A stretch of 57,253 bases of DNA from Alphaproteobacteria bacterium (GCA_040382435.1 JBEIFN010000001.1:1-57253), one strand, 5' to 3'; shown: positions 24,605-40,574, counted from the stretch's first letter. Program-made: numbers and translations. Notes: generated from the letters alone by a model not told the origin.

Positions 24605-24699
24605 GAGGAGCCTTCCGTGGCTCCGTTATCGTCACACCGCCGCGCGGGCAGGGCCGGCTTGGCCGCGGCGGGATAAATTGGCGGTCTTGTGAGGTGGGC

Positions 24700-25677
24700 A
24701 TGAACGCCACGACGCCTGAGGTTCGCTCGGATTGGCGGCGCGACGAGATCGAGGCGCTGTTCGATCTGCCGCTGCTCGCGCTGCTCGACCGTGCTCGGGC
24801 CCTGCACCTGCGCCACCACGACGCCGGCCGTGTGCAGCTCGCGACGCTCGCGAACATCAAGTCGGGGGGCTGCCCCGAGGACTGTGGCTACTGCCCGCAG
24901 TCGGCGCACCACGAGGGCGCGGTCGCGAACGAGCCGATGATGGCGGTCTGCGACGTGGTCGCGGCAGCGCGTCGGGCGCGCGAAGCCGGTGCGGCGCGCT
25001 TTTGCATGGGCGCTGCGTGGCGTCGGGTCCGCGACGGCGAGGCCTTCGATCGCGTCGTCGAGATGGTGGCGGCCGTGCACAACGAGGGGCTCGAGGTGTG
25101 CGTCACCCTCGGCATGCTCGAACCCCACCAGATCGCGCGTCTGCGGCAGGCCGGACTGTACGCGTACAACCACAACATCGACACCAGCCCCGAGTACTAC
25201 GGGGAGGTGGTCCATACGCGTCAGTACGACGACCGGCTGCAGACGCTCGCGCACGCGCGCGAAGCCGGGGTCAGCCTGTGTTCGGGCGGCATCTTGGGCA
25301 TGGGCGAGACCGAAGCCGACCGGGTGGGGATGCTTCATGTGCTCGCGACGATGTCGCCCCATCCCGAGAGCGTCCCGCTCAACCAGCTCGTGCGGGCACC
25401 GGGCACGCCGCTCTCCCAGTCGACGCCGCTCGATCCCTTCGAGTTCATCCGCGTGGTGGCGGTGGCGCGCATCGTGATGCCCGACGCCGTGCTGCGCCTC
25501 GCGGCGGGTCGGTCGTCGCTGTCGCGAGAGGCCGCGGCGATGGCGTTCTATGCGGGTGCCAACAGTATCTTCTACGGTGAGAAGCTGTTGACGACGCCCA
25601 ACCCCGACATGTCCGAGGACCGAGCCCTCCTCGCCGAGCTCGGCCTCGAGCCGATGCAGCCCGCGCCGCGCGCATGA
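24700..25677 (+). CDS. bioB: Biotin synthase
   Basis: GAGG upstream of ATG 24700. Radical-SAM CPEDCGYCPQ, YNHNIDTS, and overall collinearity with BioB. Confidence 0.96.
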   Translation: MNATTPEVRSDWRRDEIEALFDLPLLALLDRARALHLRHHDAGRVQLATLANIKSGGCPEDCGYCPQSAHHEGAVANEPMMAVCDVVAAARRAREAGAARFCMGAAWRRVRDGEAFDRVVEMVAAVHNEGLEVCVTLGMLEPHQIARLRQAGLYAYNHNIDTSPEYYGEVVHTRQYDDRLQTLAHAREAGVSLCSGGILGMGETEADRVGMLHVLATMSPHPESVPLNQLVRAPGTPLSQSTPLDPFEFIRVVAVARIVMPDAVLRLAAGRSSLSREAAAMAFYAGANSIFYGEKLLTTPNPDMSEDRALLAELGLEPMQPAPRA

Positions 25678-26804
25678 CCGACGCGCTGACGGCGCGGCTC
25701 GTCGCACGCGCAGCGGCGTGGCGTGCGCGCGACCTTCAACGCGTGCTGCAGGCGCCGCAAGGGGTCGACCTCTCGTCGAATGACGTGCTGGGGTTGTCCA
25801 CCGATCCGGACGTCGTCGCGGCCGCGCTGCACGGCGTTCGGGCCTACGGCGTGGGCTCGGGCGGCAGCCGGTTGCTCGGCGGTCACCGTCCGGTGTTCGA
25901 GGACCTGGAGGCGCGCGCCGCGTCGTGGCTGGGCGTCGAGCGGACGCTGCTGTTCGGTTCGGGGTACGCCGCGTCCGTCGGGGTGCTCACCGCGTTGCTC
26001 GGTCGGGGCGACGTGGTGGTGAGTGACGCCTTGAACCACGCGAGCTTGATCGACGGCATGCGGTTGTCGGGCGCCCGGCGGGTTGTCGTGCCTCACCTCG
26101 ACCTGTCCGCGCTCGCGCAAGCCCTGGCGGCGGCCCGACCCGAGCCTGACGGCCTCGTCGCGGTGGTCGTGGAGGGCGTGTATTCGATGGACGGAGATGG
26201 TTGGGACTTGGACGCGGTCGCGACGTTGTGCGCAGCCCACCGGGCGGTGCTCATCGTCGATGAGGCCCACGCCACGGGGTTGGTCGGTCCGTCGGGGGCG
26301 GGTGCTGCGGCCGAGGCGGGCGTTGCGGAGGCGGTTGCGGTGCGGTTGCATCCTTGCGGCAAGGCGCTTGGCGGGCAAGGCTGCCTCGTCGCCGGCTCGC
26401 GAGAGGTCATCGACGCGCTCGTGCAACACGCCAGGAGCTTCGTGTTCTCGACCGCGCCCTGGCCCGCGACGGGTGCTGCGTTGATCGCCGCGATCGACCG
26501 CGTCGCGCGCGATGAGGCGCTGCGCGCGCGTCCTGCCGCGCTCGGGGCGCACCTCCGCGAGCGCCTCGGGCCGCGTCTGGGCCTTGGGGCGGGCGCGATC
26601 GTCCCGATCCCGGCGGGTGATGCGGCACGTGCCTCCGCGCTGTCCGAGGGCCTCGCGGCGCGGGGGTGGTGGGCGCGCGCCGTCCGGCCGCCGACGGTTC
26701 CGGTCGGGACGGCGCGGGTCCGCATCGTGACGAGGGCGCCCCTCTCCGTGGCACAGATCGAGACACTAGCGGACGACGTCCTTGCGGTAGAACGTGGCCT
26801 ATGA
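25674..26804 (+). CDS. bioF: 8-amino-7-oxononanoate synthase
   Basis: ATGA overlap with bioB. Class-II aminotransferase fold of the AONS type (SNDVLGL, DALNHASLIDG, VDEAHATG, the PLP-Lys region). Confidence 0.92.
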   Translation: MTDALTARLVARAAAWRARDLQRVLQAPQGVDLSSNDVLGLSTDPDVVAAALHGVRAYGVGSGGSRLLGGHRPVFEDLEARAASWLGVERTLLFGSGYAASVGVLTALLGRGDVVVSDALNHASLIDGMRLSGARRVVVPHLDLSALAQALAAARPEPDGLVAVVVEGVYSMDGDGWDLDAVATLCAAHRAVLIVDEAHATGLVGPSGAGAAAEAGVAEAVAVRLHPCGKALGGQGCLVAGSREVIDALVQHARSFVFSTAPWPATGAALIAAIDRVARDEALRARPAALGAHLRERLGPRLGLGAGAIVPIPAGDAARASALSEGLAARGWWARAVRPPTVPVGTARVRIVTRAPLSVAQIETLADDVLAVERGL

Positions 26805-27424
26805 TCCCAACAACGCGCTTTTTCCTCTCCGGTACGGACACTGACGTCGGCAAGACCACCGCCGCCGCGGCGTTGTGTGCGGCGTGGGGGCTTGCCTACT
26901 GGAAGGTGGTGCAGGCGGGCACCGTCCCCACCACCGATCGTGCGACGGTTGGTCGGCTTGCGGGCGTGACCACGTACCCGGAGGCCTACGTGCTCGCGCG
27001 GCCCGCGAGTCCACACGCTGCGGCGCGTGACGAGGGGATCCGCATCGATCCTGGGCAGCTCCGCGCGCCATGCGAGGGGCCGCTGCTCGTGGAGGGGGCT
27101 GGAGGGTTCTCGGTGCCGCTCGCCGCGGATCCTTGGGTCTGGCAGGCCGAGATCCCCCGTCGGTTGGGGCTGCCGGTCGTGATCGTCGCCCGCACCGGTC
27201 TTGGGACGCTGCATCACACCACGACGACGGTGGCCGCTGTCCGCGCGGCGGGGTTGCCGTGCGTGGGCCTCGTGTTGGTCGGCGATCCTCACCCCGAGAA
27301 CGAGGCCGACGTCGAAGCGTTGACCGGAACCCCTGTTTGGGGACGGCTGCCGCGGGTGGTTGACGTCGATCGTGGGTTCTCGACGCTCGTCGAGGCCGTG
27401 CGGCGCTGGCGGTACGCGCGATGA
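26801..27424 (+). CDS. bioD: Dethiobiotin synthetase
   Basis: ATGA overlap with bioF. FLSGTDTDVGKT P-loop and LLVEGAGG block. Confidence 0.92.
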   Translation: MIPTTRFFLSGTDTDVGKTTAAAALCAAWGLAYWKVVQAGTVPTTDRATVGRLAGVTTYPEAYVLARPASPHAAARDEGIRIDPGQLRAPCEGPLLVEGAGGFSVPLAADPWVWQAEIPRRLGLPVVIVARTGLGTLHHTTTTVAAVRAAGLPCVGLVLVGDPHPENEADVEALTGTPVWGRLPRVVDVDRGFSTLVEAVRRWRYAR

Positions 27425-28659
27425 GCGTCTGGCATCCGTTCACACAGCTTCGCGGTTTTACCCCGCTGGGGGAGGTCGTCGCCGCCGAGGGAGCGTGGCT
27501 GCACCTGTCGGATGGGCGGCGGCTGCTCGACGGGATCAGCAGCTGGTGGGTGACCTTGCACGGTCATGCGCGCCCCGAGATCGCCGCCGCCGTCGCCGCC
27601 CAGGCTGCACGCCTCGACCAGGTCATCCTCGCCGACTTCGTCCATCCCGCGGCAGCCGCGCTCACCGCGGCCTTGTCGGGCGTACTGCCGGGGGGGCCCA
27701 AGCGCGTGTTTTTCTCGGATGACGGCTCGACGGCGGTGGAGGTCGCGCTGAAGATGGCGTGGCAGCACCAGCGGGCACGCGATCCTGGACGGACGAGGAT
27801 CGTAGCGTTTGACGGCGGTTATCATGGCGACACGCTCGGCGCGATGAGCGTGGGTGCGCGTGACGTCTTCACGCTCTCGTTCGAAGGGCTGCTGCTCCCG
27901 GTCACGTTCTTGCCGTGGGACGACGTGGATGCGCTCGAGCGCTTCTTCACCGAGCACGGTCAGCAGGTCGTGGCCGCGATCGTCGAGCCGATGGTGCAGT
28001 GTGCTGGCGGGATGCGCATCGCGGGTCCGGAGTTTCTGTCGGCCCTCGATCGGGCTGCGCATGACGCGGGCGCGTTGTGGATCGCCGACGAGGTCGCGGT
28101 GGGGTTTGGTCGTACCGGTCGGATGTGGGGATGCGACCACGCTGGTGTGTCGCCCGACCTCGTCGCGCTGAGCAAGGGGCTGACGGGGGGGACGCTCCCG
28201 ATGGGGATCACCGCAGCGTCGCAAACCATCTACGAGAGTTTTCTCGGCGCCGACAAGCGGTCGGCCTTTCTGCACGGCCACAGCTATACCGGCAACCCGA
28301 TCGCGGCGGCGGCTGCGCTCGCGAGCCTTGATCTCGTCCGTCGCGAGGACACACCGGCGCGTTTTGCCGCGTTCGAGAACGTCTATCGGGGCTGGTTCGA
28401 CGCAGTTCGGTCGAGACCGGCGCTCGCCGATCCGCGCGCGCTGGGGGGCATCTTCGCGTTCGATGTGGCGTGCGGTGGTGGCTACCACGACCCGATCGGC
28501 CGACGGGTACAGGCTGCGGCGCTGCGTCGTGGGCTGTATGTCCGTCCGCTGGGGTCGGTGGTCTACTTGATGCCCCCGGCGGCGGTCACGCTCGCCGAGC
28601 TGGACGCGGCGTGCGACAGCCTGCTGTCGGCGGTCGACGAGGCGTTGGAGGGGCGATGA
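27421..28659 (+). CDS. bioA: Adenosylmethionine-8-amino-7-oxononanoate aminotransferase
   Basis: ATGA overlap with bioD. Class-III aminotransferase with the BioA-type N-terminus (WHPFTQ), DEVAVGFGRTG, and PLP lysine in ALSKGLTGG. Confidence 0.93.
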   Translation: MSVWHPFTQLRGFTPLGEVVAAEGAWLHLSDGRRLLDGISSWWVTLHGHARPEIAAAVAAQAARLDQVILADFVHPAAAALTAALSGVLPGGPKRVFFSDDGSTAVEVALKMAWQHQRARDPGRTRIVAFDGGYHGDTLGAMSVGARDVFTLSFEGLLLPVTFLPWDDVDALERFFTEHGQQVVAAIVEPMVQCAGGMRIAGPEFLSALDRAAHDAGALWIADEVAVGFGRTGRMWGCDHAGVSPDLVALSKGLTGGTLPMGITAASQTIYESFLGADKRSAFLHGHSYTGNPIAAAAALASLDLVRREDTPARFAAFENVYRGWFDAVRSRPALADPRALGGIFAFDVACGGGYHDPIGRRVQAAALRRGLYVRPLGSVVYLMPPAAVTLAELDAACDSLLSAVDEALEGR

Positions 28660-29444
28660 ACCTGTTCGAACGACACGCGGCGCCGCGTCTGATCGGGGTC
28701 GTGCACCTGCCGCCGCTGCCCGGCAGCCCGTCGCGCGGCGCGATGCAGGAGGTGCGCGCGCGTGCCGCGGCCGACGCGGCGGCGCTCGCTGCGGGCGGTG
28801 TGGACGGGATCATCGTCGAGAACCTCGGCGACGCCCCGTTCTTCGGCGCGACGGTCGACGCCGCGACGATCGCTGGGTTGACGGTGGCCGCGCTCGACGT
28901 CCGGCAGGCGGCGCCCGAGGTGCCGCCCGGGATCAACGTGCTCCGCAACGACGGTCCGGCGGCGGTCGCGATCGCGGCGGCGGTCGGTGCGTCGTTCGTC
29001 CGCGTCAATGTGCTGACGGGCGCGATGGTCACCGACCAAGGGCTCCTGCAAGGTTGTGCGCGCGCGGTGGCCGAGGCGCGCGCATGCCTCGCACCGGGCC
29101 TGCGGGTCGCGGCGGATGTCTTGGTCAAGCACGCGACACCGCTCGGTGACCCCGATCTCGTCGAGGTCGCGCGGGACACGCTCGCGCGCGGGGGCGCGCA
29201 GGCGGTCATCGTCAGCGGCTCGGGGACCGGACGCCCGACGGACCCGGCCCGTGCGGAGCGTCTGGTCGCTGCGGGGTTGGGTCCGGTTTGGATCGGCAGT
29301 GGGGTGACGCTCGCGACCGCCGCGCGCTGGGCGGGACTGGCCGACGTCGTCATCGTGGGCACCGCGCTGCATGAGGACGCGCGGCTCGACGCGCCGCTCT
29401 GCCCGCGCCGTGTGGCGGCGATGAAGGCTGCGCTCTCGGCCTAG
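28656..29444 (+). CDS. BtpA/SgcQ-family TIM-barrel protein
   Basis: ATGA overlap with bioA. LIGVVHLPPLPGSP...GVDGIIVENLGDAPF...GINVLRND is the BtpA family pattern. Confidence 0.8.
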   Translation: MNLFERHAAPRLIGVVHLPPLPGSPSRGAMQEVRARAAADAAALAAGGVDGIIVENLGDAPFFGATVDAATIAGLTVAALDVRQAAPEVPPGINVLRNDGPAAVAIAAAVGASFVRVNVLTGAMVTDQGLLQGCARAVAEARACLAPGLRVAADVLVKHATPLGDPDLVEVARDTLARGGAQAVIVSGSGTGRPTDPARAERLVAAGLGPVWIGSGVTLATAARWAGLADVVIVGTALHEDARLDAPLCPRRVAAMKAALSA

Positions 29445-30811
29445 CCGCGCCAAGCGAGGAAGGTCTGCACCGCGATGACTGACCCGATGACGCCGAACAG
29501 GTCGGCGAGCAACCCCGCCGCGATCGCGTGGCGGTAGCGGTGGATCCCGACGCTGCCGAAGTAGACGGCGAGGACGTAGAAGGTTGTCTCCGAGCAGCCG
29601 TTGATCGTGCTGACGAGCAGGCCGGTGTAGGTGTCGGGTCCCGTGGCGGGGTCGGCGAGCGTTGCGGCGAGGAGTCCGTTCGCGCCGCTGCCGGAGAGCG
29701 GCCGGATCAACGCCATCGGGAGCGCCTCGCCCGGCAGCCCGAGCGGGCGCGTGAGCGGATCGAGCACAGCGACGATCGCGTCCAGCGCGCCCGAGGCTTG
29801 GAAGAACCCGACCGCGGTGAGGACCGCCACGAGGTAGGGGACAATGCGCACGGCGGTCTCCCACGCCTCCCGTGCGCCGCGCAAGAACGAGGCGTACACG
29901 TCCACGCCGCGCCAAGCCCCGAGCGCGATCACGCCGGTGGCGAGGGTGGGAACGAGCCAGGGGCCCAAGGTGTCCGAGAACAGGACCATCGCCGGGATCG
30001 CGAGCAGCGCGCCCCCGAAGGCGAGCAGCGTGACGGCCCAGGGCAGGGCGGGGAGCGGGGCCTCGCGCTCGCCGGCGTCCTCGACCGGCCGTACGTCGTC
30101 GGGCGGCGTCACGGCCTCGGGGCCGGGCAACCAGCGGGCCGCGATCAGCGCGAATGCGATGGCTCCAGCCGTCGAGCACAGGGTGGCGAAGAGGGTGGTC
30201 GCGACGATGTCGGCGGGCCCCGTCGAGCCCGCGGCCTGGCGGATCGCGATCGCTTGGGTGGGGATCAGCGTCACCGACGAGGTGTTGATCGCGAGGAACA
30301 ACACCATCGCGTTGGAGGCCGTGCCGCGGTGGGGGTTGAGGCGGTCCAGCTCGCGCATGGCCTTGAGGCCAAACGGCGTCGCCGCGTTCGCCAAGCCGAG
30401 GGCATTTGCGCTCAGGTTGAGGATCATCGCCGACATCGCGGGGTGATCCGCCGGAACGTCGGGGAACAGACGGACCATCAGCGGGCGGATCAGACGCGCG
30501 AGGAAGGTGAGCGCGCCTGCGTCCTCGGCGATGGCGACGATGCCGAGGAAGAACGCCATCACGCCGATGAGTCCGATCGCGAGATCGACGGCCTTGCCGG
30601 CCTTGTCGAGGATGGCTTCACCGCCCTTCTTCATCGGGCTCGGCGCGGGCGCGGGTGTGCCGGGGTCGGAGACGGCCTGACCGGGCGTCGTCGTGGTGTC
30701 GGTCGCTGTGTTTTGCACGACCTCGACCGTAGGTGGGGGCGAGGGCCACACCGTCCGAACCCCGGCGACGGCGAAGGCGAGCATGAACAAGAAGGCGAAC
30801 ACGCGGTTCAT
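29441..30811 (-). CDS. Nucleoside-recognition-domain membrane protein (fused SpmA/SpmB-like)
   Basis: ATG 30811 is preceded by GGGAG. Polytopic, with LSANALGLANAATPFGLKAM and LSGSGANG blocks. Thr/Pro-rich segment after the first TM helix. Confidence 0.75.
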   Translation of the reverse strand: MNRVFAFLFMLAFAVAGVRTVWPSPPPTVEVVQNTATDTTTTPGQAVSDPGTPAPAPSPMKKGGEAILDKAGKAVDLAIGLIGVMAFFLGIVAIAEDAGALTFLARLIRPLMVRLFPDVPADHPAMSAMILNLSANALGLANAATPFGLKAMRELDRLNPHRGTASNAMVLFLAINTSSVTLIPTQAIAIRQAAGSTGPADIVATTLFATLCSTAGAIAFALIAARWLPGPEAVTPPDDVRPVEDAGEREAPLPALPWAVTLLAFGGALLAIPAMVLFSDTLGPWLVPTLATGVIALGAWRGVDVYASFLRGAREAWETAVRIVPYLVAVLTAVGFFQASGALDAIVAVLDPLTRPLGLPGEALPMALIRPLSGSGANGLLAATLADPATGPDTYTGLLVSTINGCSETTFYVLAVYFGSVGIHRYRHAIAAGLLADLFGVIGSVIAVQTFLAWRG

Positions 30812-30890
30812 TGGCGCTCCCGGGTCAGCGATGGTCAACACGCGCGGCGTGCGTCCCCCGGGGTGTTACCCGATTGGCGGCGAGGTTGGC

Positions 30891-31931
30891 GTGCGACGCT
30901 GGGCAGTGGGGGCGGCCTTCTTGGCGTTGACGGCGTGCGGCGGAGGCGACGTTGACGCGCCGACGTCGGACGCGCCCGCAGCGTCGTGGGCGGGCGGTTC
31001 GCTCACGCAGGCCGAGCTGCAGGCCGAGGTCGCCGACGAGCTGGCCCAGCTCGAGACGCGCACGGCGCTGCAGCGCTACGAGATCTTGCATCGCGCGCTG
31101 GAGTCCAAGGTCGAGGGCGAGGTGCTGGCCGCAAGATGCGAGGCGACGGGAGCGGCGTCGGTCGAGGCGCTGTTGCAGGCCGAGGTCGACGCGAAGGTCC
31201 CTGAGGCGGACGAGGGCAGGATCCGTCGCGAGTTCGACCGCCTGTCCGCCCAGATGCCCGGCGCGGACTACGCGACGGTGCGGCCGCACCTCGTCCGCCA
31301 GCTGCGAGAGTCCGACATCGCCAGCGCGCGCCTCGACTACGTCGCCGGCCTCAAGGACGCCGCCGGGCTCCGGTTGCACCTTCCCTACCCCGACATCCCT
31401 CGGACCCACGTGGAGGTTCGCGAACACGACGCGGTCCGCGGGCCCGCCGATGCACCGGTGACGCTGGTGATGTTCGGTGAATACCAGTGCTTCTTCTGTC
31501 GTAAGGCCTTGCCGCTGCTCGGGCGGCTCGCCAGCGAGCACAGCGATCTGCGGGTGGTGTTCAAGGACTTCCCGATGCAAGGCCACGACGCTGCGCGGGA
31601 CGCCGCAGTGGCGGCGCGCTGCGCGGGTCAGCAGGGGCGCTACTGGGAGATGGCGGACCGCTTGATGGAGCGTCAAGACGCGCTCGCGCCGGCCGACCTC
31701 GAACAGCACGCGGTCGCGCTCGGGCTGGACGTCGCGCCGTGGCGAGACTGCGTCGCCGACGGGATTTGGCAGGAGCGCATCGAAGAGAGCGTGCGGGACG
31801 GTCGTGAGGCGGGCGTGCACGCGACGCCGACCTTCTTCGTCAACGGGCGGATGGTGGCGGGCTCGGTCGGCTGGGAGCGGCTGGACGATCTGGTCTCCAG
31901 CGAGTTGGCGGCGGTCGCAGCGGCGCGCTGA
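30891..31931 (+). CDS. DsbA/thioredoxin-fold lipoprotein (CxxC = CFFC)
   Basis: Preferred start is GTG 30891 (GAGG about 8 nt upstream), which gives a classic lipobox (RRWAVGAAFLALTAC-G). The alternative ATG 30831 leaves only 19 bp to the divergent gene. FGEYQCFFCRK and ATPTFFVNG are DsbA-family blocks. Confidence 0.8.
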   Translation: MRRWAVGAAFLALTACGGGDVDAPTSDAPAASWAGGSLTQAELQAEVADELAQLETRTALQRYEILHRALESKVEGEVLAARCEATGAASVEALLQAEVDAKVPEADEGRIRREFDRLSAQMPGADYATVRPHLVRQLRESDIASARLDYVAGLKDAAGLRLHLPYPDIPRTHVEVREHDAVRGPADAPVTLVMFGEYQCFFCRKALPLLGRLASEHSDLRVVFKDFPMQGHDAARDAAVAARCAGQQGRYWEMADRLMERQDALAPADLEQHAVALGLDVAPWRDCVADGIWQERIEESVRDGREAGVHATPTFFVNGRMVAGSVGWERLDDLVSSELAAVAAAR

Positions 31932-32026
31932 CCCGTGTTGCGCGGCGCCGGGCACGATGTCCACCGCAGGGTCGTCGTGTTCGGCGTCTGTACGGGCGGC
32001 GTGCTAGGGCGTTCTCGGAGGGCGTT

Positions 32027-35000
32027 TTGCCGACCCCTACGCGCATCGGTCCGTTCGACGTCGTCCGCCCGCTCGCTACGGGCGGCATGGCCGAGGTGTT
32101 CGAGGTGCTCGATCCGGCCACCGGGGAGCGGTACGCGCTCAAGCTGCTGCAAGAAGCCCGCTCCTCGCTCAAGCGGTTCAACCGCGAGTTCGAGGCGATG
32201 TCGCGCCTGAACCATCCCGGCATCTGCCGGGTGTACCGCTACGGGCAGCATGAGCGGCAGCCGTGGATCACGATGGAGCTGCTCGACGGACTGGCGCTGC
32301 AGTCGTGGGTCAAGCGATTTGGCGATCCCGGCGCGCCGGAGCGGACCGCCGAGACGCTGCGGGTCGGGTGGTGCATCGCGGGTGCCTTGGGCTACCTGCA
32401 CGACCGCGGGATCGTGCACCGCGACCTCAAGAGCGCAAATGTCGTCGTGCTGCATGACGGTCGCGTCAAGCTGCTCGACTTCGGGACGGCGCACTTGCTC
32501 GACCCGCTCGAGCGGATCACGGCACCCGGCGACTTTGTCGGCACGTTCAGCTACGCCTCGCCCGAACAGATCCTCGGCCATGCCGTCGACGGCGCCTCCG
32601 ATCTGTATGCACTCGGCGTCATCCTGTACCGGCTGGCCTCGGGACGTCGGCCGTTTCGGGGGTCGGACCCCAAGACCTTGGCCCAGCTGCATCTGCAGGA
32701 GGTGCCGAGGCGGATGCGGGAGTCGGTGCCCGAGCTGCCCGAGGCGCTCGACGCCTTGGTGGCGCGCCTCCTCGAAAAGCGCGTGACCGACCGTCCGAGG
32801 TCGGCGTCGGTCGTGGCCGACGCGCTCGAATCGATCCATGGCGCGCCGTTTGTCCTCCCGGGGGACGGGCTGCACTTTGCGGCTGAGCGGTCGGTGGGAC
32901 GTGGGCCGCAGCACATCGCGCTGTGGCGTGCGCTCGATGCGGTTGTGCCGGGCGGCGCCGTCGAGGTCTCGGGGCTCGATCCGCTGGAGATCGACACGTT
33001 CGCCGAGACGGTGGCCCAGGACGCGGCGCGCCGGGGGTGGCGTGCCGCGGTGCTCGGGACGCAAGACCTTCACCTGCGTGGCTTGGCGCTCGCGGTGGCT
33101 GCGTTGGCGTCCGCTGGGGATCAGCCCGAGCTTCGGGAGCTGCGTCGCGCGCCGCCGGACGGCGTCGAGCGGCTCCTGAGGACGCTGGTCCCGACGTTGA
33201 TGACGGCGTTGGCGCGCACGGAGGAGCCGGCCGTCCTCGTCCTTGAGTCCCCAGGTCGCTTGGACACGGCGGCGCAGCGTGTCCTCGTCGCGTTGGCGCG
33301 CGGCGCGAGCGCGGCCAACACGCGGCTGCGCTTTGTTCTGCTCGACCTTCCTGTCGGCGATTCGAGCGGGCTCGCCACGGCGCTCGACGCCACTCGGCTG
33401 TGCGCCCCGCGTCTGATGGACGGAGAGGTCGCCATCGCGACGGCGGAGCTGCTGCATCGCCGTCCGCCGCCCCCCAACGCCGCGCGCCGGATCGCGCATG
33501 CGTCGGGCGGTCGTCCGGGGTGGCTCGCGCCGGTCCTCGAAGCGATGCTCGACGCCGACGAAGTCGAGGTTCGGGCGGACGACGCGAACCGCGTCGACTG
33601 GCAGGAGCGTCCGAGTCATGTGCCGTTTCATGCCGAGCGCTTGGAGCAGGCGCGGGCGGCGGTGGGCGAGCGGGTTCCGGCGGCTTGGCGCGCGGTCGGT
33701 GAGCCGATCGCCCTGCTCGACGCGCCGCTCCCTGAGGCGGTGCTGTTCGACGTGCTCGGCGGCTCGGCCGCGGCGGTGTCGGTGATCCTCGAGGATGGTC
33801 ACGCGGCCGGGGTGTGGCGGCGCGCGGAAGGGAGGGTCGCTATCGATGATCCCGTCTTGTCGCGGCTGTGGCGCGAGGGGATGACCTCGGCGCGACGGCT
33901 CGCGCTGGTGGAGGCCCTCGCGCGGGTGGGTGAGACGCGTGCGCCGACCGCGGCGCTCGCGGCGTGCATGTTCGAGGCGGGTCGGAGCGAAGGGGCGCTC
34001 CGCGTCGCGGTGCGCGTGGCGCAAGATCTTCTCGATCTCGGTGCGTCGGCCGATGCTTTCGCGCTGCTCGACGGCCTCGTCGATGCCGCCCAGCATCCTG
34101 GGCTGGACGCCGGTCTGGTGTGTTCGTTCTTCGTCGCCCATGGCCGTTGCGCACGCATCGTTAAGCCCTTGGACCCACGGAGCGTCCGCAGCTTCAAGAT
34201 CGCCGAGGAGCGCGCCGAGACCGACGCCGCCCGCGCTCGGGTCGCCCTCGCGCGCGCAGAGCTGTACGCTGCTCTGGGGCACCCCTCCAACCATGCGCGC
34301 GCGCTCGAACTGGCCTGGACGTTGCTCAAGGACGCGCCATCGGACCCGTTGCGCTCCGAGGTCGCCCGCCGGCTCGGTGCGCAGTGCGTCGACGACGGTC
34401 GCATCGGTCTCGCGCTCCGGTGGTTCGATCATGCGATCGCCGCGGCCGAAGCGGCCTCGGACGCCGTGGCGTTGGGGGCCGCGGAGCTGGAGCGCGCGCG
34501 GTTGACGTGGTGGCTCGGCGACGCCGATGCGGCGCTGGCCGTCGCGACGCGCTTGTCTGCGTCGACCAACGCGCCGCTGGCGTGGAGCGCGATCGCGCTG
34601 ACGGCGGACGTTGGCCGCCTGCAGGGGCGGTTCTCCGAGGTGCTTGCGCCGCTCGAGCGCGCCGTCGCGCAGCTCCGGGCCGGCGGTGCCCCGCCTGAGG
34701 TGCGCTGGCGGCTTTTGCTCGTCCTGGGGGAGATCGAGCTCGCGCTCGATCGGCTCGGTGGCGCACAAGAGGTCGCGGAGGAGCTGCTGGGTGGCCTTGC
34801 GCGGGGTGAACCTCTCCCTCGACGCCTTGAGGCGAGACGCTTGGCTGCGCGTGTTCATCTCGCGTCCGGGCGCGTCGCGGACGCTCGTTCGGCGCTGCAA
34901 GACATCGTCTCGGCTGCGGACGCCGCCGGGCTGCGCCGGCTCGCCTACTTGGCACGCGCCCCGCTCGGAGAGGCGGCGGTGCTACAAGGGGATGGCTTGG

Positions 35001-35362
35001 ACGCCGCGCTCGCGTTCGATGACGCGCTGAAGTCCTCCCTGGCTGCCGGGGACCGGCTCGCCGCGGCGCAGATCTCGCTCCACTGGGGACGTTCGCGGCG
35101 CCCAGACGCGGAGACCCACGCGATGGTCGCGCCCGCGCGCGCCCTGCTCGAACGGCGAGGGTACCGCTGGCTCGAGGTCGAGTACGCGCTCCTCGAGCTG
35201 CGGATGCTCCGCGATCTTGGGCATCTCGGTCCGTCCGAGCGTGCGTTGGCGGAGGCGAGAGCGCTGCTCCAGGGGATCGCGGCGCGTCAGGCGGTCACGG
35301 AGGCCTCGGCGCTGCGGGTCCACCCGTGGACCCGAGAGGTCCGGCGAGCGATGGCCTCGTGA
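32027..35362 (+). CDS. Ser/Thr protein kinase with degenerate AAA/STAND-like middle domain and C-terminal TPR-like helical repeats
   Basis: TTG 32027 lies 5 nt after GGAGGG. Kinase motifs ATGGMAEV, YALKLL, HRDLKSANVV, DFGTA and SYASPEQ are all present. No GK[ST] occurs anywhere after the kinase domain; the Walker-A position reads SGLDPLEID and the Walker-B position LVLESPGRLD. Confidence 0.9.
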   Translation: MPTPTRIGPFDVVRPLATGGMAEVFEVLDPATGERYALKLLQEARSSLKRFNREFEAMSRLNHPGICRVYRYGQHERQPWITMELLDGLALQSWVKRFGDPGAPERTAETLRVGWCIAGALGYLHDRGIVHRDLKSANVVVLHDGRVKLLDFGTAHLLDPLERITAPGDFVGTFSYASPEQILGHAVDGASDLYALGVILYRLASGRRPFRGSDPKTLAQLHLQEVPRRMRESVPELPEALDALVARLLEKRVTDRPRSASVVADALESIHGAPFVLPGDGLHFAAERSVGRGPQHIALWRALDAVVPGGAVEVSGLDPLEIDTFAETVAQDAARRGWRAAVLGTQDLHLRGLALAVAALASAGDQPELRELRRAPPDGVERLLRTLVPTLMTALARTEEPAVLVLESPGRLDTAAQRVLVALARGASAANTRLRFVLLDLPVGDSSGLATALDATRLCAPRLMDGEVAIATAELLHRRPPPPNAARRIAHASGGRPGWLAPVLEAMLDADEVEVRADDANRVDWQERPSHVPFHAERLEQARAAVGERVPAAWRAVGEPIALLDAPLPEAVLFDVLGGSAAAVSVILEDGHAAGVWRRAEGRVAIDDPVLSRLWREGMTSARRLALVEALARVGETRAPTAALAACMFEAGRSEGALRVAVRVAQDLLDLGASADAFALLDGLVDAAQHPGLDAGLVCSFFVAHGRCARIVKPLDPRSVRSFKIAEERAETDAARARVALARAELYAALGHPSNHARALELAWTLLKDAPSDPLRSEVARRLGAQCVDDGRIGLALRWFDHAIAAAEAASDAVALGAAELERARLTWWLGDADAALAVATRLSASTNAPLAWSAIALTADVGRLQGRFSEVLAPLERAVAQLRAGGAPPEVRWRLLLVLGEIELALDRLGGAQEVAEELLGGLARGEPLPRRLEARRLAARVHLASGRVADARSALQDIVSAADAAGLRRLAYLARAPLGEAAVLQGDGLDAALAFDDALKSSLAAGDRLAAAQISLHWGRSRRPDAETHAMVAPARALLERRGYRWLEVEYALLELRMLRDLGHLGPSERALAEARALLQGIAARQAVTEASALRVHPWTREVRRAMAS

Positions 35363-35835
35363 TCACGGGCGCCTGGCGGAGGCTCGCGCCCGCGGCGCGG
35401 GGGTGGCGTCAGGCCGCGGCTGGGCTTCGTGCCGTGTTGACGATGACGCCGGCGCTCGCTTGGGGAGCGATGCTGCTGGGGCCGCGCGTGGGCTGGGGGC
35501 CGCTCCTCGCCGTGATGCCCGCCGCTTGGCTGATCGGTGTGGCGTTGTCGGTCTATGTGGCCGGGCGACGCCATGACGCCGTCGTTTGGCTGTGTTTGCC
35601 CGAGCAACTCGTCGTCGTCGAGGGCGTGTGGTGGCGACAGACGATCGCCGTGCCGCTCGAAGCGGTGCAGCATGTCGACGTCGACGAGGGGCCGCTCGCG
35701 CGTGCGCTCGGTGTCGCCACGCTCGCGGTGTACACCGGCACAGGGGGAGGCGCGGACGTGGTCCTCGCTGGCTTGTCGCACGGTGACGCCGAGGCGCTCC
35801 GAGGATTTCTGATCGCGGCGGCCCCGCATGGATGA
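35359..35835 (+). CDS. YdbS-like bacterial PH-domain (bPH_2) membrane protein
   Basis: GTG 35359 overlaps the kinase TGA (GTGA); the alternative is GTG 35326. Two TM helices, then a bPH_2 block (VPLEAVQHVDVDEGPLARALGVATLAVYT). Confidence 0.75.
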   Translation: MITGAWRRLAPAARGWRQAAAGLRAVLTMTPALAWGAMLLGPRVGWGPLLAVMPAAWLIGVALSVYVAGRRHDAVVWLCLPEQLVVVEGVWWRQTIAVPLEAVQHVDVDEGPLARALGVATLAVYTGTGGGADVVLAGLSHGDAEALRGFLIAAAPHG

Positions 35836-37483
35836 GGTGGGGGACCGTCGCTTGCCGCTGCGGGCCGCCCCCTTGGCCGCCGGGCGTGAGCTGCTTGGCT
35901 TGCTGCGGCGGTGGGCTTGGTTGTTGCTGCTCGCGTGGGTCGGACATCGTCCGGAGGCCCCGACCCGTCCCCTGCTCGCGGTGAGTCTCGTCCTCGGCAT
36001 GATCGCCGCGGCTCGCGCCGCGTGGGTTCCGTTGACGACGCGGTGGGCGCTGGGTCGCGCGGCGTTGACGGTTCAGACCGGCTGGTTGCGCGTGGAGCGC
36101 CGGGTGCTCCCGCTGTCGCGCATCGTGGCGGTCGAGGTCGCTTACGGGCCGTTGTTGGCTGCGCTCGGCTTGGCCGAGGTGGAGATCCGGACGTTGGGCG
36201 ACGCTGAGGCCCCGTTGCGGCTTCGGTGGCTCGAACGCAAGGACGCGGCCAGCTTGCAGGCGGCGCTCCGTGGGGAGGGTCAGCGCGCGGCGCCGTCGGC
36301 GGCGTGGGGCTGCCCCCTCTGGCTGTGGGCGCTCTGGGGCGCGATGCAGCCACGCTGGGGGGCGGTGGTGCTCGTCGTCGGCGGGGCGTCGCAGTTGGTG
36401 GGCTGGCGTCCCGATGGCGTCGATCGTCCCGACCCTGTGTGGATCGACCGGATGCTGGTGCTGGGTCTGCTCCTCGGGCCGGCGGTGGGCGCGGTGCAAG
36501 CCGTCATTCAACACGCGGGACAGACCCTCACGCCGACGCCTCGGGGCGTCGCGGTGCGCGCGGGATGGCCGGTGGCGCGGCGCTGGCAGCTCGAACGCGA
36601 GCGCGTCGCGTCGGTTCGTTGGGTGCAAGGACCTTGGCTGGCGCGATCCGGTGCGGTCCGGGTGGTGATCCACGCCGTGCGCGCCGCCGACGCGCGAACG
36701 GGGGTGCTGACCGATCTCACGCTCGTGGTCCCTTGGTTGTCGTGGTCACAAGCAGAAGAACTGGGTGCGGCACTCGGCGTCGCCCAGCAGCGCGCGTTCG
36801 ACGGGGGGGTGCCGCTGGCGGCTGTCGAGGGGCATCGGCGTCGCGCGGTCGCCCTCCTCGCGGGCGGCGTGGGCGGCGTCGCGCTTGGGGTCGTCGTTCA
36901 GCCCGGCTTGGGGGCTGCCTGGGCGGCGGCTTGGCTCGCGTGGGGCATCTGGCGGGGGGCACGCGCGCGCGCGACGCGGTGGGGGGCGGACGCGCTCGGG
37001 TGGTGGCGGCGTGTCGAGGGCCCTTGGCCTGCGTGGGAGGTCGCCGTTGGCGCGCGCGCGACGCGCGCCGCGATGCTGACCCCGCCGTGGCTCGCGGCAC
37101 GTGGCGTCACCCGACTGGGCCTAGGAAGCCCGGGGCGTTGGTTTGCGTTGGGGCTGGTCGACGCCCATGCCGCCGAGGCGGCGGCGCTGGGGTGGGCGCG
37201 CTCAGCCGTCCGCCGCCGCGCGCTCGGCGCGCAACTCGAGCAGCACGAGGGTGCTGCTGGCGGCGAGGATGGCACCCAGCACGTCGCCGTAGAGCAGCGA
37301 GAGCAGCACGCCCAACATGGCCAGACCGACAGCGGCGTAGGGCTGGCGTCGGTACCAGCTGACGGCGAGGCTGAACTCGGCGGCCGCGAGGGCGAGGGTG
37401 AAGCCGCTGCTGGTCAACATCCCGAGGGTCATCGGCGAACCGACCCCATAGAAGCTCCACTCCCAGCGGAGGTTGAGCGCTGA
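35828..37483 (+). CDS. YdbT-like membrane protein with repeated bPH_2 domains
   Basis: ATG 35828 overlaps the upstream gene by 8 nt. Repeated 'LPLSRIVAVEVAYGPLLAALGLAEVEI'-type bPH_2 units are separated by TM pairs. The last ~94 codons (37202-37483) run antisense to a better-supported minus-strand gene and look like a shadow extension. Confidence 0.7.
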   Translation: MDEVGDRRLPLRAAPLAAGRELLGLLRRWAWLLLLAWVGHRPEAPTRPLLAVSLVLGMIAAARAAWVPLTTRWALGRAALTVQTGWLRVERRVLPLSRIVAVEVAYGPLLAALGLAEVEIRTLGDAEAPLRLRWLERKDAASLQAALRGEGQRAAPSAAWGCPLWLWALWGAMQPRWGAVVLVVGGASQLVGWRPDGVDRPDPVWIDRMLVLGLLLGPAVGAVQAVIQHAGQTLTPTPRGVAVRAGWPVARRWQLERERVASVRWVQGPWLARSGAVRVVIHAVRAADARTGVLTDLTLVVPWLSWSQAEELGAALGVAQQRAFDGGVPLAAVEGHRRRAVALLAGGVGGVALGVVVQPGLGAAWAAAWLAWGIWRGARARATRWGADALGWWRRVEGPWPAWEVAVGARATRAAMLTPPWLAARGVTRLGLGSPGRWFALGLVDAHAAEAAALGWARSAVRRRALGAQLEQHEGAAGGEDGTQHVAVEQREQHAQHGQTDSGVGLASVPADGEAELGGREGEGEAAAGQHPEGHRRTDPIEAPLPAEVER

Positions 37484-37561
37484 CTGCCCCAGCAGGAGCG
37501 AAGCGCCGATGGCGATCGCGCTCGCGAGTACGGTATGCAGCATCAGGATGGAGAGGCGCAT
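37202..37561 (-). CDS. Small hypothetical integral membrane protein (about 4 TM)
   Basis: Strongly hydrophobic 119-aa product. Its third codon positions are the G/C-rich ones in the region shared with the plus-strand ORF tail. No Shine-Dalgarno is visible; M7 at 37543 is an alternative start. Confidence 0.55.
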   Translation of the reverse strand: MRLSILMLHTVLASAIAIGASLLLGQSALNLRWEWSFYGVGSPMTLGMLTSSGFTLALAAAEFSLAVSWYRRQPYAAVGLAMLGVLLSLLYGDVLGAILAASSTLVLLELRAERAAADG

Positions 37562-38018
37562 GCGGTCCGCGTGGAAGGTGGTGGCTTGGCGTCGGTTCGA
37601 CGTGCAGCCCGAGGAGGTGTGGGCGGCGCTCGGTGCCGACCCCCAAGGCGTTCTAGCCCCCAACGGCCCGTTCGGCTCGGTGCAGGCCTTCGCGCAAGGT
37701 CCGTGGACCGTCGATCCGCCGTCGCGGGCGCGGCGGCTCTCGGCGGGGTGTGATCAGCGCCTTCGTATCGAGCGCGCGATCGGAGATCGCAGCCGCTTGG
37801 TCGTCGAGACCCTGGTGTGGCGCTCGGGTTGGTTCGCAGGACTGGCCGCACGCATGGCGGCGTCCGCGGCCGGACGCGCGGCGGTGACTGCGCTGCAAGC
37901 CGTGGCGCTGCCGGGGGACGGCAAGGCGGGTCTGCGCGCTCACCCGCTCCCGCCAGCGATGGCGGGGCACGGCGAGGACGCGCTGGGCACGTTGCTCGCG
38001 CCTGCGACGTCACGCTAG
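37560..38018 (+). CDS. Hypothetical protein, possibly SRPBCC-fold
   Basis: GGAGAGG lies upstream of ATG 37560. High GC3. The N-terminus (WKVVAWRRFDVQPEEVWAAL) resembles the start of SRPBCC/polyketide-cyclase-like proteins. The family call is weak. Confidence 0.5.
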   Translation: MRSAWKVVAWRRFDVQPEEVWAALGADPQGVLAPNGPFGSVQAFAQGPWTVDPPSRARRLSAGCDQRLRIERAIGDRSRLVVETLVWRSGWFAGLAARMAASAAGRAAVTALQAVALPGDGKAGLRAHPLPPAMAGHGEDALGTLLAPATSR

Positions 38019-38671
38019 CCGACCCGCAACGCGGCTTGCAGGACAGCGCCGGTGAAGCTCGGTCGTAGGTAGAGCCCGCGCCGCATCGCACGCACGCGCT
38101 CGCCCTCCTCGTCGATCACCCACGCGGTGTCTTCGGCGCTTTTCCCCTTGGGCCGCACCTGGAGCGCGACGCCGAGGCGGCCGTGGAGCAGTCGGTGTTC
38201 CCCTTGGGCCGCGACGTCTGCGAACGTCTCCCAGTCGTTTGCGAGCACGGCTTCCTCGTCTGCCGTCGGGACCCACAGGAACGCACGACCCACGCGCGGG
38301 CCGGTCGGCGTGGCGACGATGGGCACCCAGAGGACGTGAGAGAGCTTGGCGCGAACGGGGCAATGTTCCCAGCGTGGCCAACCCGGTTCGAGGGGTGCGG
38401 TCGTGACGTAGGTCGACTCGCGGGGCCTGCCGTCGGGGTTGACGGGGAGCGTTTTGCACTCCACGCCCAGCGTCGGAAAGTCAGGCACGGGGAGGTTGCC
38501 GGCGTGCGCGCCGAGCAGGCGCTCCACCGCCTCGCCGACCCAGCCCTTGCTGCGGCTCGGATCGGGGCACCGCGTGTGGAGGCGCGCGGCGAGGTCCTCG
38601 GCGCTCGCGCCCGCCAGCGCGCGGGCCCGCTGGCGCAGGACCTCGAGGGTCTCGGGCGGCGCGACGCGCAT
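38015..38671 (-). CDS. mutH: MutH-family GATC-specific nicking endonuclease
   Basis: Collinear with E. coli MutH over the whole length: KGWVGEAVERLLGA, PDFPTLGVECKTLPV (D...ExK catalytic triad), VLWVP, LQVRPKGKS, RRGLYLRPSF (the Tyr212-equivalent block). Confidence 0.85.
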   Translation of the reverse strand: MRVAPPETLEVLRQRARALAGASAEDLAARLHTRCPDPSRSKGWVGEAVERLLGAHAGNLPVPDFPTLGVECKTLPVNPDGRPRESTYVTTAPLEPGWPRWEHCPVRAKLSHVLWVPIVATPTGPRVGRAFLWVPTADEEAVLANDWETFADVAAQGEHRLLHGRLGVALQVRPKGKSAEDTAWVIDEEGERVRAMRRGLYLRPSFTGAVLQAALRVG

Positions 38672-38676
38672 CTCGG

Positions 38677-39771
38677 CTACGGCGCTGTGTGGACGAGCGT
38701 CGTGACGGCCGCGTCGATCGGCGCGCGTCCGTCGAGCAGGGCCGAGGCGTCGGCGCGTCCCGTGGCCGTCTCAGCGAGCGCGAGGAGCCCGACAACGCCG
38801 ATGCGTTGGCTGGTGGCCGCGTCGAGCGTCACGCCTGGGGAGTCGATGCCAGGGAGTCCTGCTTGGTCGCCCCAGCCGACGTGTCCGGCGCCGGCGATGT
38901 CGTGGCGCCAGGCGGGCGCAGGCAGCGCGCCCCAGATGGCCTCGCCGTCGGCCGGAGTCGAGGGGTCGAGCGCGCCCGTCTGGTGAAGCGTGGGTAGGGC
39001 GGTCGCACCGACGCCTGCGGCCTGCATCAGGCGCCAGTCGCCGGGTGCGAACGCGACCGCGCCCTGAAACCGGTCGTCGGCGAACCCCGCCTCGAACGAC
39101 GGGAGGTAGGCGTCGGTCCAGCCGTTGCACACGCTCGCGGTGTCGCCTTGCGCACACAGCGGCCCCCACGTCGCGACGTCGAGGCCGGCCCCGGCGATCA
39201 ACAGAGCCGTGAAGCCGCCGAACGAATGTCCTGCGACCACCGCCTGCCCGTTGGGCACGAGGAACGGCTCGGCGCCGTCGAGCAGGTGGGTCAGCGTCGC
39301 TGAGACGTCGGCCGGACGCTGCACGTAGATGTCGGTGGTGCGGTCGGGGCTGTCGAACGACGTGTTGCCGGTGTGGTCGGGTGCGGCGACGATCCAGCCG
39401 TGACGAGCGGCCTGCGCCATCACCGACCCGAGGCTCTCGGCGAACCCGCGATGGCCGTGCGAGAACACGATGACTGGGCGCGGACCGGGCGCCGGTGCCG
39501 GGTCATCGAGGACCCCTGGGGCCGGGAAGAACCCGAGGTAGGCGACCTCGTCGTCGGTCAGTTCCGGGGCCTCGGTCGGGAACCACAGCGCGAGGCGCAG
39601 GCGACGCTCGCCGGTCAGCGGGTGGTCGTAGACGACCTCGGAGGTGCGGTAGCCGACGCGGTAGCTGCCCGATCCCGTGATCTCGGCCACCGGGTCAACG
39701 TCGGCGCTGTCGACCGCGTCATCGGTTCCGTTCGGCGCCGTGCATGCCAAAAGCGAGGCGAGCCACCACAT
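38677..39771 (-). CDS. Alpha/beta-hydrolase lipoprotein (PAF-acetylhydrolase / dienelactone-hydrolase-like)
   Basis: ATG 39771 (MWWLASLLAC-T lipobox). VIVFSHGH and AGHSFGG nucleophile elbow. Ends 5 nt before the mutH start. Confidence 0.75.
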   Translation of the reverse strand: MWWLASLLACTAPNGTDDAVDSADVDPVAEITGSGSYRVGYRTSEVVYDHPLTGERRLRLALWFPTEAPELTDDEVAYLGFFPAPGVLDDPAPAPGPRPVIVFSHGHRGFAESLGSVMAQAARHGWIVAAPDHTGNTSFDSPDRTTDIYVQRPADVSATLTHLLDGAEPFLVPNGQAVVAGHSFGGFTALLIAGAGLDVATWGPLCAQGDTASVCNGWTDAYLPSFEAGFADDRFQGAVAFAPGDWRLMQAAGVGATALPTLHQTGALDPSTPADGEAIWGALPAPAWRHDIAGAGHVGWGDQAGLPGIDSPGVTLDAATSQRIGVVGLLALAETATGRADASALLDGRAPIDAAVTTLVHTAP

Positions 39772-39893
39772 CCACACCTTCCGGGTGTTGGGTAACGCGG
39801 CGTCGGAGGGCTGGCGGACCGTCCATCGGTCGCAGGGTGAGACGCTGTGAATCATCGGCTCATGCCGTGCGAGGCCCCGCGCGGAGGTGGGCG

Positions 39894-40574
39894 ATGACGA
39901 CGGTCGAGGCGTATGGGGTGACGGGTCCGGAGCGTTGGGGCGACGCGGAGCTGCTCGCGCTGATCTTGGGCGGCCCGCGGTCGCTGCAGGCTGCAGCCGA
40001 GGCGCTGGAGGTGTTCTCGGGGCTCGCGAACCTCGCGTTGGAGGAGCCGATGGCGATCGCCGAGCGGGCGGGGCTGTCGCTCCCCCGCGCGGTCCGAATG
40101 CACGCGGCCCTCGCGCTCGGACGGCGGGCGCTCAGTCAGGCGGCGGTCGAGGTCGCCAAGCTCGAAGACGCGGCGGATGCGGCGCGGATCTTCCGGCCAC
40201 GGCTCGCTCACCTCGCACGCGAGGAGCTGCACGCGGCGTTCTTGGATCGCCGCAACCGGGTCGTCGCGATTCGCACGCTCACGACGGGGAGCGCGGCCTA
40301 TACGATCGTCGACCCTGCGCACGTGTTTCGCGTGGCGCTCGCGGTCCGCGCCGAGGCGGTCGTGCTCGCGCACAACCATCCTTCGGGAGACGCGCGACCT
40401 TCGGTGGCCGATGTCGAGATCACGCAGCGCATCGCCGAAGCGGGTCGCATGTTGGGGGTCGCCTTGCTCGACCACGTGATCGTGGGCGCCGATGAGGTGG
40501 TCAGCCTCGCCGCCAGGGGCGCGGTGCCGCGCTTTCACACGGGCTCACCAGCGCTGGCCGCGGATCCGACGTAG
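39894..40574 (+). CDS. radC: RadC-family JAB/MPN-domain protein
   Basis: N-terminal helix-hairpin-helix-like region (ELLALILG) and the JAMM motif VLAHNHPSGDARPSVADVEIT. Confidence 0.9.
   Translation: MTTVEAYGVTGPERWGDAELLALILGGPRSLQAAAEALEVFSGLANLALEEPMAIAERAGLSLPRAVRMHAALALGRRALSQAAVEVAKLEDAADAARIFRPRLAHLAREELHAAFLDRRNRVVAIRTLTTGSAAYTIVDPAHVFRVALAVRAEAVVLAHNHPSGDARPSVADVEITQRIAEAGRMLGVALLDHVIVGADEVVSLAARGAVPRFHTGSPALAADPT

Follow-up and report, generated by a model that had tools for sequence, protein, structure and literature searches.

PknK of Mycobacterium tuberculosis is a STAND kinase of the MalT subfamily, in which, as described in the available part of the source, an N-terminal Hanks kinase domain is followed by a NOD consisting of a nucleotide-binding domain (NBD), a helical domain and a winged helix, and then by a C-terminal repeat sensor (PMC4381067). 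The bPH_2-domain membrane proteins YdbS and YdbT of Bacillus subtilis (COG3402 and COG3428) are encoded on the same strand, the gene for a small protein with one bPH_2 domain being followed by an overlapping gene for a large protein with repeated bPH_2 domains. In this study, we analyzed a DNA stretch of 57,253 nucleotides (GCA_040382435.1 JBEIFN010000001.1:1-57253, designated as the window; its source assembly is designated as G000), in which positions 32027-37483 are occupied by three co-directional open reading frames (ORFs) that encode a kinase with the domain order of PknK, a YdbS-like protein and a YdbT-like protein, and we compared this locus with those of its relatives.

Proteins with bPH_2 domains are widespread and are found in Bacillus, staphylococci, mycobacteria and archaea. 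YdbS has two transmembrane (TM) segments and one PHb2 domain, while YdbT has six TM segments and three PHb2 domains, according to the accessible text of PMC8657885. YdbS/YdbT-like pairs are also encoded in leaderless-bacteriocin loci, namely DdE/DdF of Enterococcus faecalis, LnqC/LnqD and Orf7/Orf8; among these, DdE/DdF are required for the export of enterocin DD14 (PMC8657885), and assistance in leaderless-bacteriocin export is the only role tested for bPH_2 proteins. The sigma-W control of B. subtilis ydbST, which the first-pass annotation of the window had stated, is supported by the down-regulation of ydbST in a sigW mutant (PMC3498285, available part), and a resistance phenotype of ydbST is called unsupported by experiment in the accessible text of PMC8657885.

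The locus in the window shares the gene order and the overlap with the Bacillus pair and differs from it in several respects: sigma-W control is a Bacillus trait, the YdbT-like protein of the window has a degenerate third repeat and an 86-residue tail running over a convergent ORF, and the pair of the window is preceded by a translationally coupled kinase gene. Kinases with TPR domains and tandem duplicates are both typical of myxobacteria, and 26% of the 317 kinases of S. cellulosum have such a domain; that source, as far as consulted, mentions neither a NOD lacking catalytic motifs nor a connection with bPH_2 membrane proteins (PMC11032199). Our literature search, which covered little of the subscription journals, found neither bPH_2 pairs tied to Ser/Thr kinases nor STAND kinases without the Walker A lysine.

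We conclude that the three genes very likely constitute a real, lineage-restricted operon. The comparison also hints, short of proof, at a new membrane-linked signaling unit, and we put the probability of a direct partnership between the kinase and the YdbS/YdbT pair at roughly 45%. The earlier reading of the locus as a new membrane-linked kinase module is partly supported, namely by the conserved linkage, the overlapping genes and purifying selection, but the linkage belongs to one taxonomic family and is broken in 12 of its genomes.

Gene junctions and conservation of the linkage

The kinase gene (32027-35362, plus strand, 1111 aa) starts with TTG, the first start codon past the upstream stop, and GGAGG lies 5 nt ahead of it. 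Its stop codon TGA (35360-35362) and the start codon GTG (35359-35361) of the YdbS-like gene (35359-35835, plus strand, 158 aa) overlap as GTGA (35359-35362), as first noticed from the sequence. The longest YdbS ORF opens at an earlier GTG at 35326 (169-aa form), and the start at 35359 yields the N-terminus of the orthologs. The second overlap reported for the locus is likewise present: the YdbT-like gene (35828-37483, plus strand, 551 aa) starts with ATG at 35828, the YdbS-like gene stops with TGA at 35833-35835, and the two genes thus share 8 nt (35828-35835), an arrangement also found in the closest relative, the genus-mate G001. A contig from another study's run covers 34900-37900 with 48 substitutions and no gaps, and a second independent contig covers 35121-35837, including both junctions, with one substitution and no gaps. 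Because these contigs span the junctions without gaps, the frames and overlaps are not assembly errors. Given the stop/start overlaps at both junctions, the three genes are very probably translated from one mRNA. A promoter and terminator scan of 29300-38800 gave no promoter-like and five terminator-like sequences (3.7 expected), a result that is uninformative in DNA of 72% G+C.

We surveyed the linkage with the C-terminal part of the kinase, Pfam bPH_2 and custom hidden Markov models (HMMs). Counts were taken from HMM matches on six-frame ORFs; gene calling based on the G+C content of third codon positions (GC3) missed genes in relatives with lower G+C. The kinase, YdbS and YdbT genes are adjacent on the same strand in 22 of the 36 other genomes of the taxonomic family (15 of 22 genera), including G020, where a gap of ~0.8 kb intervenes, and G028, which was judged from coordinates only. 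Two of the 36 were not judged, as G017 gave no kinase match with 16 of its 32 candidates scored and G034 is fragmented. Among 22 kinase-YdbS junctions, that of the window included, 12 are 4-nt NTGA overlaps, one is a 1-nt overlap and one is probably a longer overlap; the others are seven gaps of 3-82 nt and one of ~0.8 kb.

Most genomes of the family carry two tandem kinase paralogs, designated as KIN1 and KIN2, and the commonest gene order is redoxin, Gate-domain protein (opposite strand), DsbA-like lipoprotein, KIN1, KIN2, YdbS and YdbT. The clade of the window keeps one kinase. In the tree, the downstream paralogs form one clade of 16 rows with a support of 99, while the window kinase is one of seven single-copy genes that form a clade nested with the upstream paralogs. 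The overlap with YdbS is found both after KIN2 and, as in the window, after a single KIN1-type gene. The proposal of a three-gene module therefore does not fit most genomes, in which the unit has two tandem kinases and a DsbA-like lipoprotein gene upstream. KIN2 is monophyletic for the C-terminal segment (support 99), and an origin of the single kinase as a KIN1/KIN2 chimera was ruled out, as four segment trees never placed the single-kinase genes in the KIN2 clade.

First-look kinase-domain candidates number 20-260 per family genome, or about one per 30-170 kb, with at most 20 in G000; chance adjacency is therefore possible in the largest genomes and unlikely in G000. When 185,579 species genomes were searched with the pattern of the C-terminal kinase signature (LRVHPW in the window), the kinase family was detected at only 37 loci, with titles that are Myxococcota-like or mislabeled. 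Thirteen of these loci lie beyond those fetched: two adjoin YdbS, four have no YdbS within at least 2.5 kb downstream, and the rest are at contig ends or otherwise uninformative. The conserved linkage on which the first-pass annotation had staked its reading therefore recurs, in the 22 family genomes and with NTGA at 12 of the 22 junctions, but it is restricted to this one family.

Purifying selection acts on all three genes. In the comparison of G000 with G001, the ratio of nonsynonymous to synonymous substitutions (dN/dS) is 0.073 for the kinase, 0.18 for YdbS and 0.12-0.17 for residues 1-465 of YdbT; for the NOD of the kinase it is 0.083, which indicates strong purifying selection.

The kinase and its STAND module

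The kinase domain (residues 12-263, 32060-32815, plus strand, like the other kinase features below) matches Pfam Pkinase (PF00069) with 147.7 bits against a cut-off of 31.7 (E 5.7e-43) and PknA/PknB by sequence (E about 1e-42). Its model has the bilobal kinase fold, and Foldseek retrieved PknB (5u94, E 1.2e-17, TM 0.91 on the target). YALKLL at 36, HRDLK at 131, DFG at 151 and SPE at 178-180 are all in place, and K39, D133, K135, N138, D151, T165 and T173, the last two being threonines of the activation loop, are invariant in 38 relatives. The Hanks kinase domain is therefore intact, as had been noted. The full-length AlphaFold model has a predicted local distance difference test score (pLDDT) of 89.9 and a predicted TM-score (pTM) of 0.89. 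Hydropathy analysis gave a single weak hydrophobic stretch and no strong membrane segment.

The kinase domain is followed in the model by a NOD (residues 293-605, 32903-33841), recognized by AlphaFold and Foldseek as a P-loop-type NBD, a helical domain and a winged helix. A beta-alpha-beta domain (293-460) leads to the helical domain, two-stranded hairpins with helices occupy 513-605, and 28 helices extend from 609 to the C-terminus. Modeled alone, the NOD had a pLDDT of 90.9 and was matched by Foldseek to the STAND/AAA+ proteins PAB2304, ORC2/Cdc6, CED-4, Apaf-1, NRC2/3, the STAND-TPR protein 6mfv, MalT and Avs3 (E 4e-9 to 4e-6). Pfam AAA_16 stays below its cut-off in the window NOD (18.7 bits against 32.6, E 0.0026); at E<=0.01 it is detected in 29 of 40 members of the kinase family, with 4.6e-13 as the best value. 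The helical domain bears the most conserved motif of the kinase family, HRRPPP...ASGGxPxYVEE, in which G495 and P497 are invariant; GGRPGW of the window (residues 494-499, 33506-33523) lies inside this motif and is presumably the counterpart of the GxP motif seen in the helical domains of STAND proteins.

The remaining part is a helical-repeat arm (residues 609-1111, 33851-35359). Pfam detects no TPR in the window kinase, and the profile of the kinase family matches TPR proteins in the arm with E 3e-9 to 1e-5, besides weak matches to a designed P-loop ATPase and to winged-helix regulators. Near the C-terminus, the family signature LRVHPW (35312-35329) contains an invariant H1099, with P1100 and W1101 each kept in at least 90% of relatives. 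The initial reading as an AAA/STAND-like region followed by TPR-like repeats was therefore right, and in architecture the protein belongs with the PknK/MalT branch of STAND proteins (PMC4381067); the likeness to MalT (8bob) and 6mfv comes from the NOD model, and that to PknK is one of architecture and fold. PknK is also of similar length, about 1100 aa, and we know of no link between it and YdbS/YdbT.

Of the two Walker motifs of the NOD, which the first inspection of the gene had called lost, the A site is decayed and the B site is present as a remnant. GK[ST] occurs nowhere in the 1111-aa protein. The decayed Walker A site, SGLDPLEID (residues 315-323, 32969-32995), lies in the model in the loop between a strand (311-315) and a helix (322-335), as in a P-loop-type fold, and has I in place of the lysine and D in place of the S/T residue. 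The Walker B remnant, LVLESPGRLD (residues 404-413, 33236-33265), is at the end of a strand (402-407), where E407 takes the first of the two acidic positions and S408 the other.

The description of a dead NTPase module was confirmed as to the loss, but the loss is a trait of the whole kinase family and not peculiar to the window gene. None of 40 family sequences has the Walker A lysine; the downstream paralog reads GxxGSGR, the upstream paralog mostly GxxGSDR, and ten weaker homologs from sister families mostly GxxGSGR too. When 1.84 billion cluster representatives were searched in full with an HMM, 1883 matched at E<=1e-30 (a word-indexed homolog search gave four proteins, which reflects the type of search, not rarity), and we took a census of the Walker motifs in the best 150 of the 1883. 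Among the full-length relatives, i.e., matches of 1000-1260 aa with the site aligned, the lysine position is occupied by Arg in 62 of 86, by another residue in 22 and by Lys in 2; HRDxK is present near the N-terminus in 90 of 91 census kinases. GK[ST] is kept in 15 of 15 longer, non-kinase AAA_16-type matches, which fixes the alignment register at Walker A. The first acid of Walker B is kept in 19 of 88 family representatives, whereas all 17 longer proteins retain it.

Unlike in MalT, the Walker A lysine is thus replaced in the window kinase and in 84 of 86 relatives, and the NOD cannot run as the usual ATP-hydrolyzing switch between ADP- and ATP-bound states. We read this NOD as a putative STAND scaffold that has given up nucleotide hydrolysis, and in the clade of the window nucleotide binding has probably been lost as well. 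Since the Walker A lysine is absent and AAA_16 scores below its cut-off, the kinase was filed as a derived, catalytically silent STAND variant rather than as a typical member.

The membrane pair, a possible mechanism and its alternatives

The YdbS-like protein consists of a probable hydrophobic hairpin and one bPH_2 domain (52.3 bits against a cut-off of 22, E 7e-14). A simple hydropathy scan gave a clear segment at residues 55-80, numbered on the 169-aa form, and a weaker one before it, and an alignment with 48 orthologs covers both hydrophobic stretches. The YdbT-like protein, which also shows hydrophobic hairpins, matches bPH_2 with E 6e-16 in two clear repeats that pass the cut-off, followed by a degenerate third repeat and, from about residue 466, a non-conserved tail. 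The G000 assembly has three bPH_2 matches in all, every one at this locus. Arginines are abundant at the N-terminus and in the stretch that follows the YdbS hairpin, and by the positive-inside rule the PH domains of YdbS and YdbT would face the cytoplasm, within reach of a soluble kinase.

The last ~86 residues of YdbT (37241-37483, plus strand) run over a convergent ORF (37202-37663, minus strand) that resembles a small three-helix membrane protein. The dN/dS of this tail is 1.38 with a dS of only 0.25 (G000 versus G001). The wobble position leaves the YdbT frame for another after about 37240-37390, and a plus-strand ORF at 37473-38018 shares that third position. A frameshift as the cause of the long tail was ruled out, as the independent contigs are gap-free and G001 has the same stop.

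Judging from the sequences, the kinase most likely acts at the YdbS/YdbT pair. The three proteins would be made from one mRNA, and the nucleotide-independent NOD and the TPR arm may serve as a fixed scaffold by which the kinase would bind to the PH-domain assembly in the cytoplasm, or to a ligand held by this assembly. Clustering at the membrane would then allow the kinase domains to trans-phosphorylate their invariant activation-loop threonines, and the output would be phosphorylation of YdbS/YdbT or of downstream targets. A perturbation of the membrane or by a peptide is the most likely cue, because relatives of the pair are required for leaderless-bacteriocin export in Firmicutes and are controlled by sigma-W in Bacillus. 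We thus infer, as did the first-pass annotation, that the membrane proteins could be the sensor or the target of a scaffold-kinase and that the signaling may concern envelope stress. A broader proposal, in which YdbS/YdbT-type pairs are docking or sensing partners of kinases from a large "pseudo-STAND" family with a nucleotide-independent scaffold NOD, and which would give bPH_2 domains a first signaling role, appears unlikely to us at present.

Several observations weigh against a direct partnership. In 12 of the 36 family genomes both the kinases and the pair are kept, but apart, and where YdbS/YdbT have moved away, the kinase tandem is preserved, in many cases along with the DsbA-like gene. 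In the sister families f2-f7, no kinase domain was found in the fetched flanks of the pair in any of 20 genomes (up to 8 kb per side; five loci end at contig ends), so such a kinase is not needed for the pair to work. Synteny extends over the whole block, so that conservation of the linkage is partly plain synteny, descent alone explains part of it, and related genomes are not independent. The window itself also departs from its relatives, as the third YdbT repeat aligns with that of the orthologs but is degenerate and missed by Pfam, and as the YdbS C-terminus x-x-G-[VLI] (mostly GDDGV), found in 47 of 49 orthologs across the order, is replaced by ...AAAPHG in the window (35815-35835) and in G001 (L025). 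The lineage of the window is fast-evolving.

Some of these points suit an account that we regard as a serious, if somewhat less probable, competitor: a lineage-specific kinase duplication landed upstream of a housekeeping YdbS/YdbT pair in the ancestor of the family, the genes became co-transcribed neighbors without partnership, the overlaps arose as in any tight operon, and the signaling of the kinase concerns another matter. All 61 genomes sampled from the order contain the pair, usually in one copy with four bPH_2 domains, and this universality favors a housekeeping role over that of a bacteriocin accessory. Likewise, the sister-family pairs lack a nearby kinase in 20 of 20 genomes, the link was lost in a third of the family genomes (12/36) without loss of either part, and the flanking genes are syntenic too. 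Tandem, lineage-specific duplication is known for myxobacterial kinases, and TPR fusions are common among them, as stated in the available part of PMC11032199.

The neighbor account has more difficulty with the junctions and with other kinases at the pair, both of which point to more than synteny. The stop/start overlap is kept or rebuilt across many genera at ~30% kinase identity and survives the loss of one paralog. In addition, different kinases follow the pair in eight genomes of the family and in one genome of another family of the phylum. The eight genomes share a tail-anchored Ser/Thr kinase of ~400-650 aa (Pkinase and a C-terminal hydrophobic helix) on the same strand after YdbT (L046, L047, L048, L050, L056, L060, L064 and L043); these kinases are at least 49% identical to each other and directly adjacent to YdbT in six. 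Seven of the 11 fetched loci without an adjacent big kinase carry this kinase, and G030, the eighth genome, carries both kinases. The 71%-complete G000 assembly gave no such kinase, its best match being 35% identical. A blast cluster, "c3", was ruled out as a single orthologous kinase family because it is heterogeneous. In G085, the genome from the other family, genes for a 172-aa bPH_2 protein, for another bPH_2 protein and for a Pkinase follow one another on one strand (L136:6405-10887), possibly representing an independent link between a PH-domain pair and a kinase. The two other bPH_2 loci from outside the order have no adjoining kinase; the phylum-wide bPH_2 sample, taken with a threshold of 1e-16 that was too strict, yielded three new loci, too few for a rate.

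It is improbable, in our estimate, that the functional unit is instead formed by the DsbA-like lipoprotein and the kinase pair for envelope thiol/redox sensing, with KIN1 and KIN2 as a heteromeric pseudo-STAND and YdbS/YdbT as bystanders. The DsbA-like gene 5' of the window kinase (30693-31931, plus strand; Thioredoxin_4 E 3.5e-22, DSBA E 1.2e-14) encodes a thioredoxin-like lipoprotein with the lipobox LALTAC and a CFFC motif, and its real start is probably ~190 nt inside the ORF. In 17 other family loci it immediately precedes the kinase, also in G008, G010 and G027, in which YdbS/YdbT are separate or inverted; a redoxin gene is nearby in several loci, and KIN1 and KIN2 are adjacent in every locus that has both. 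However, the lipobox places the lipoprotein in the periplasm and the kinase has no strong membrane segment, so that no direct contact is evident, and the gaps between the two genes are ~50-95 nt, as opposed to overlaps at the YdbS junction. The DsbA-like gene is also absent from the kinase-pair loci G016, G021, G022, G026 and G031.

It is very improbable that the protein is an anti-phage STAND protein of the Avs type, with the kinase domain as its effector and the membrane pair as a downstream effector: the NOD model does match Avs3 and NLR-type STAND proteins among others, and the PADLOC kinase models PD-T4-6 and mad6 match residues 8-271 strongly, but these matches concern the generic kinase domain only, YdbS, YdbT and the neighbors have none, the NTPase motifs of such switches are missing, and the locus is not a patchy island but a syntenic block of the chromosome, inherited vertically within one family and set among biotin-synthesis and envelope genes.

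Genomic surroundings and implications

Assembly G000 is an uncultured Myxococcota metagenome-assembled genome; it has 3.4 Mb and is 71%-complete, and the G+C content of the window is ~71%. The DNA occurs in fresh water or groundwater. Records of the relatives are titled as uncultured Myxococcota, Myxococcales or Deltaproteobacteria, and a few are clearly mislabeled. Several public records with the Myxococcota-type kinase bear the names "uncultured Enterobacteriaceae", "Klebsiella pneumoniae", "Rhodobacterales" or "Alphaproteobacteria", apparently because metagenome bins were mislabeled.

Upstream of the module, 24694-29444 is occupied by a biotin-synthesis cluster with a BioB-like radical SAM/BATS protein, a class I/II aminotransferase, a dethiobiotin-synthetase-like AAA_26 protein and a class III aminotransferase, followed by a BtpA-family gene; the gene names in this cluster are our reading of Pfam matches. 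The gene at 29441-30841 (minus strand), divergent from the DsbA-like gene, codes for a multi-pass membrane protein with two Gate (nucleoside recognition) domains, and 12 other loci show it in synteny with the module. Downstream of YdbT are genes for a MutH-like endonuclease (38015-38671, minus strand), an alpha/beta hydrolase (38677-39855, minus strand) and a RadC-like JAB protein (39744-40574, plus strand), none of which is kept beside the module in relatives. The scanned neighbors comprise biotin, DsbA-like, MutH-like, hydrolase and RadC genes, and no ABC-transporter family is among the Pfam matches in ~24.7-46.4 kb.

If the three genes were mere neighbors, the locus would be an ordinary case of myxobacterial kinase expansion. 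If the direct partnership is true, a conserved, coupled kinase partner would provide a concrete handle on the function of YdbS/YdbT and on the way in which a soluble kinase of bacteria senses the membrane state. Separately, the at least 86 sequence clusters of full-length kinases with a lysine-less STAND module are a natural test of whether STAND scaffolds can work without an ATP switch, a question also debated for P-loop-independent plant NLRs.

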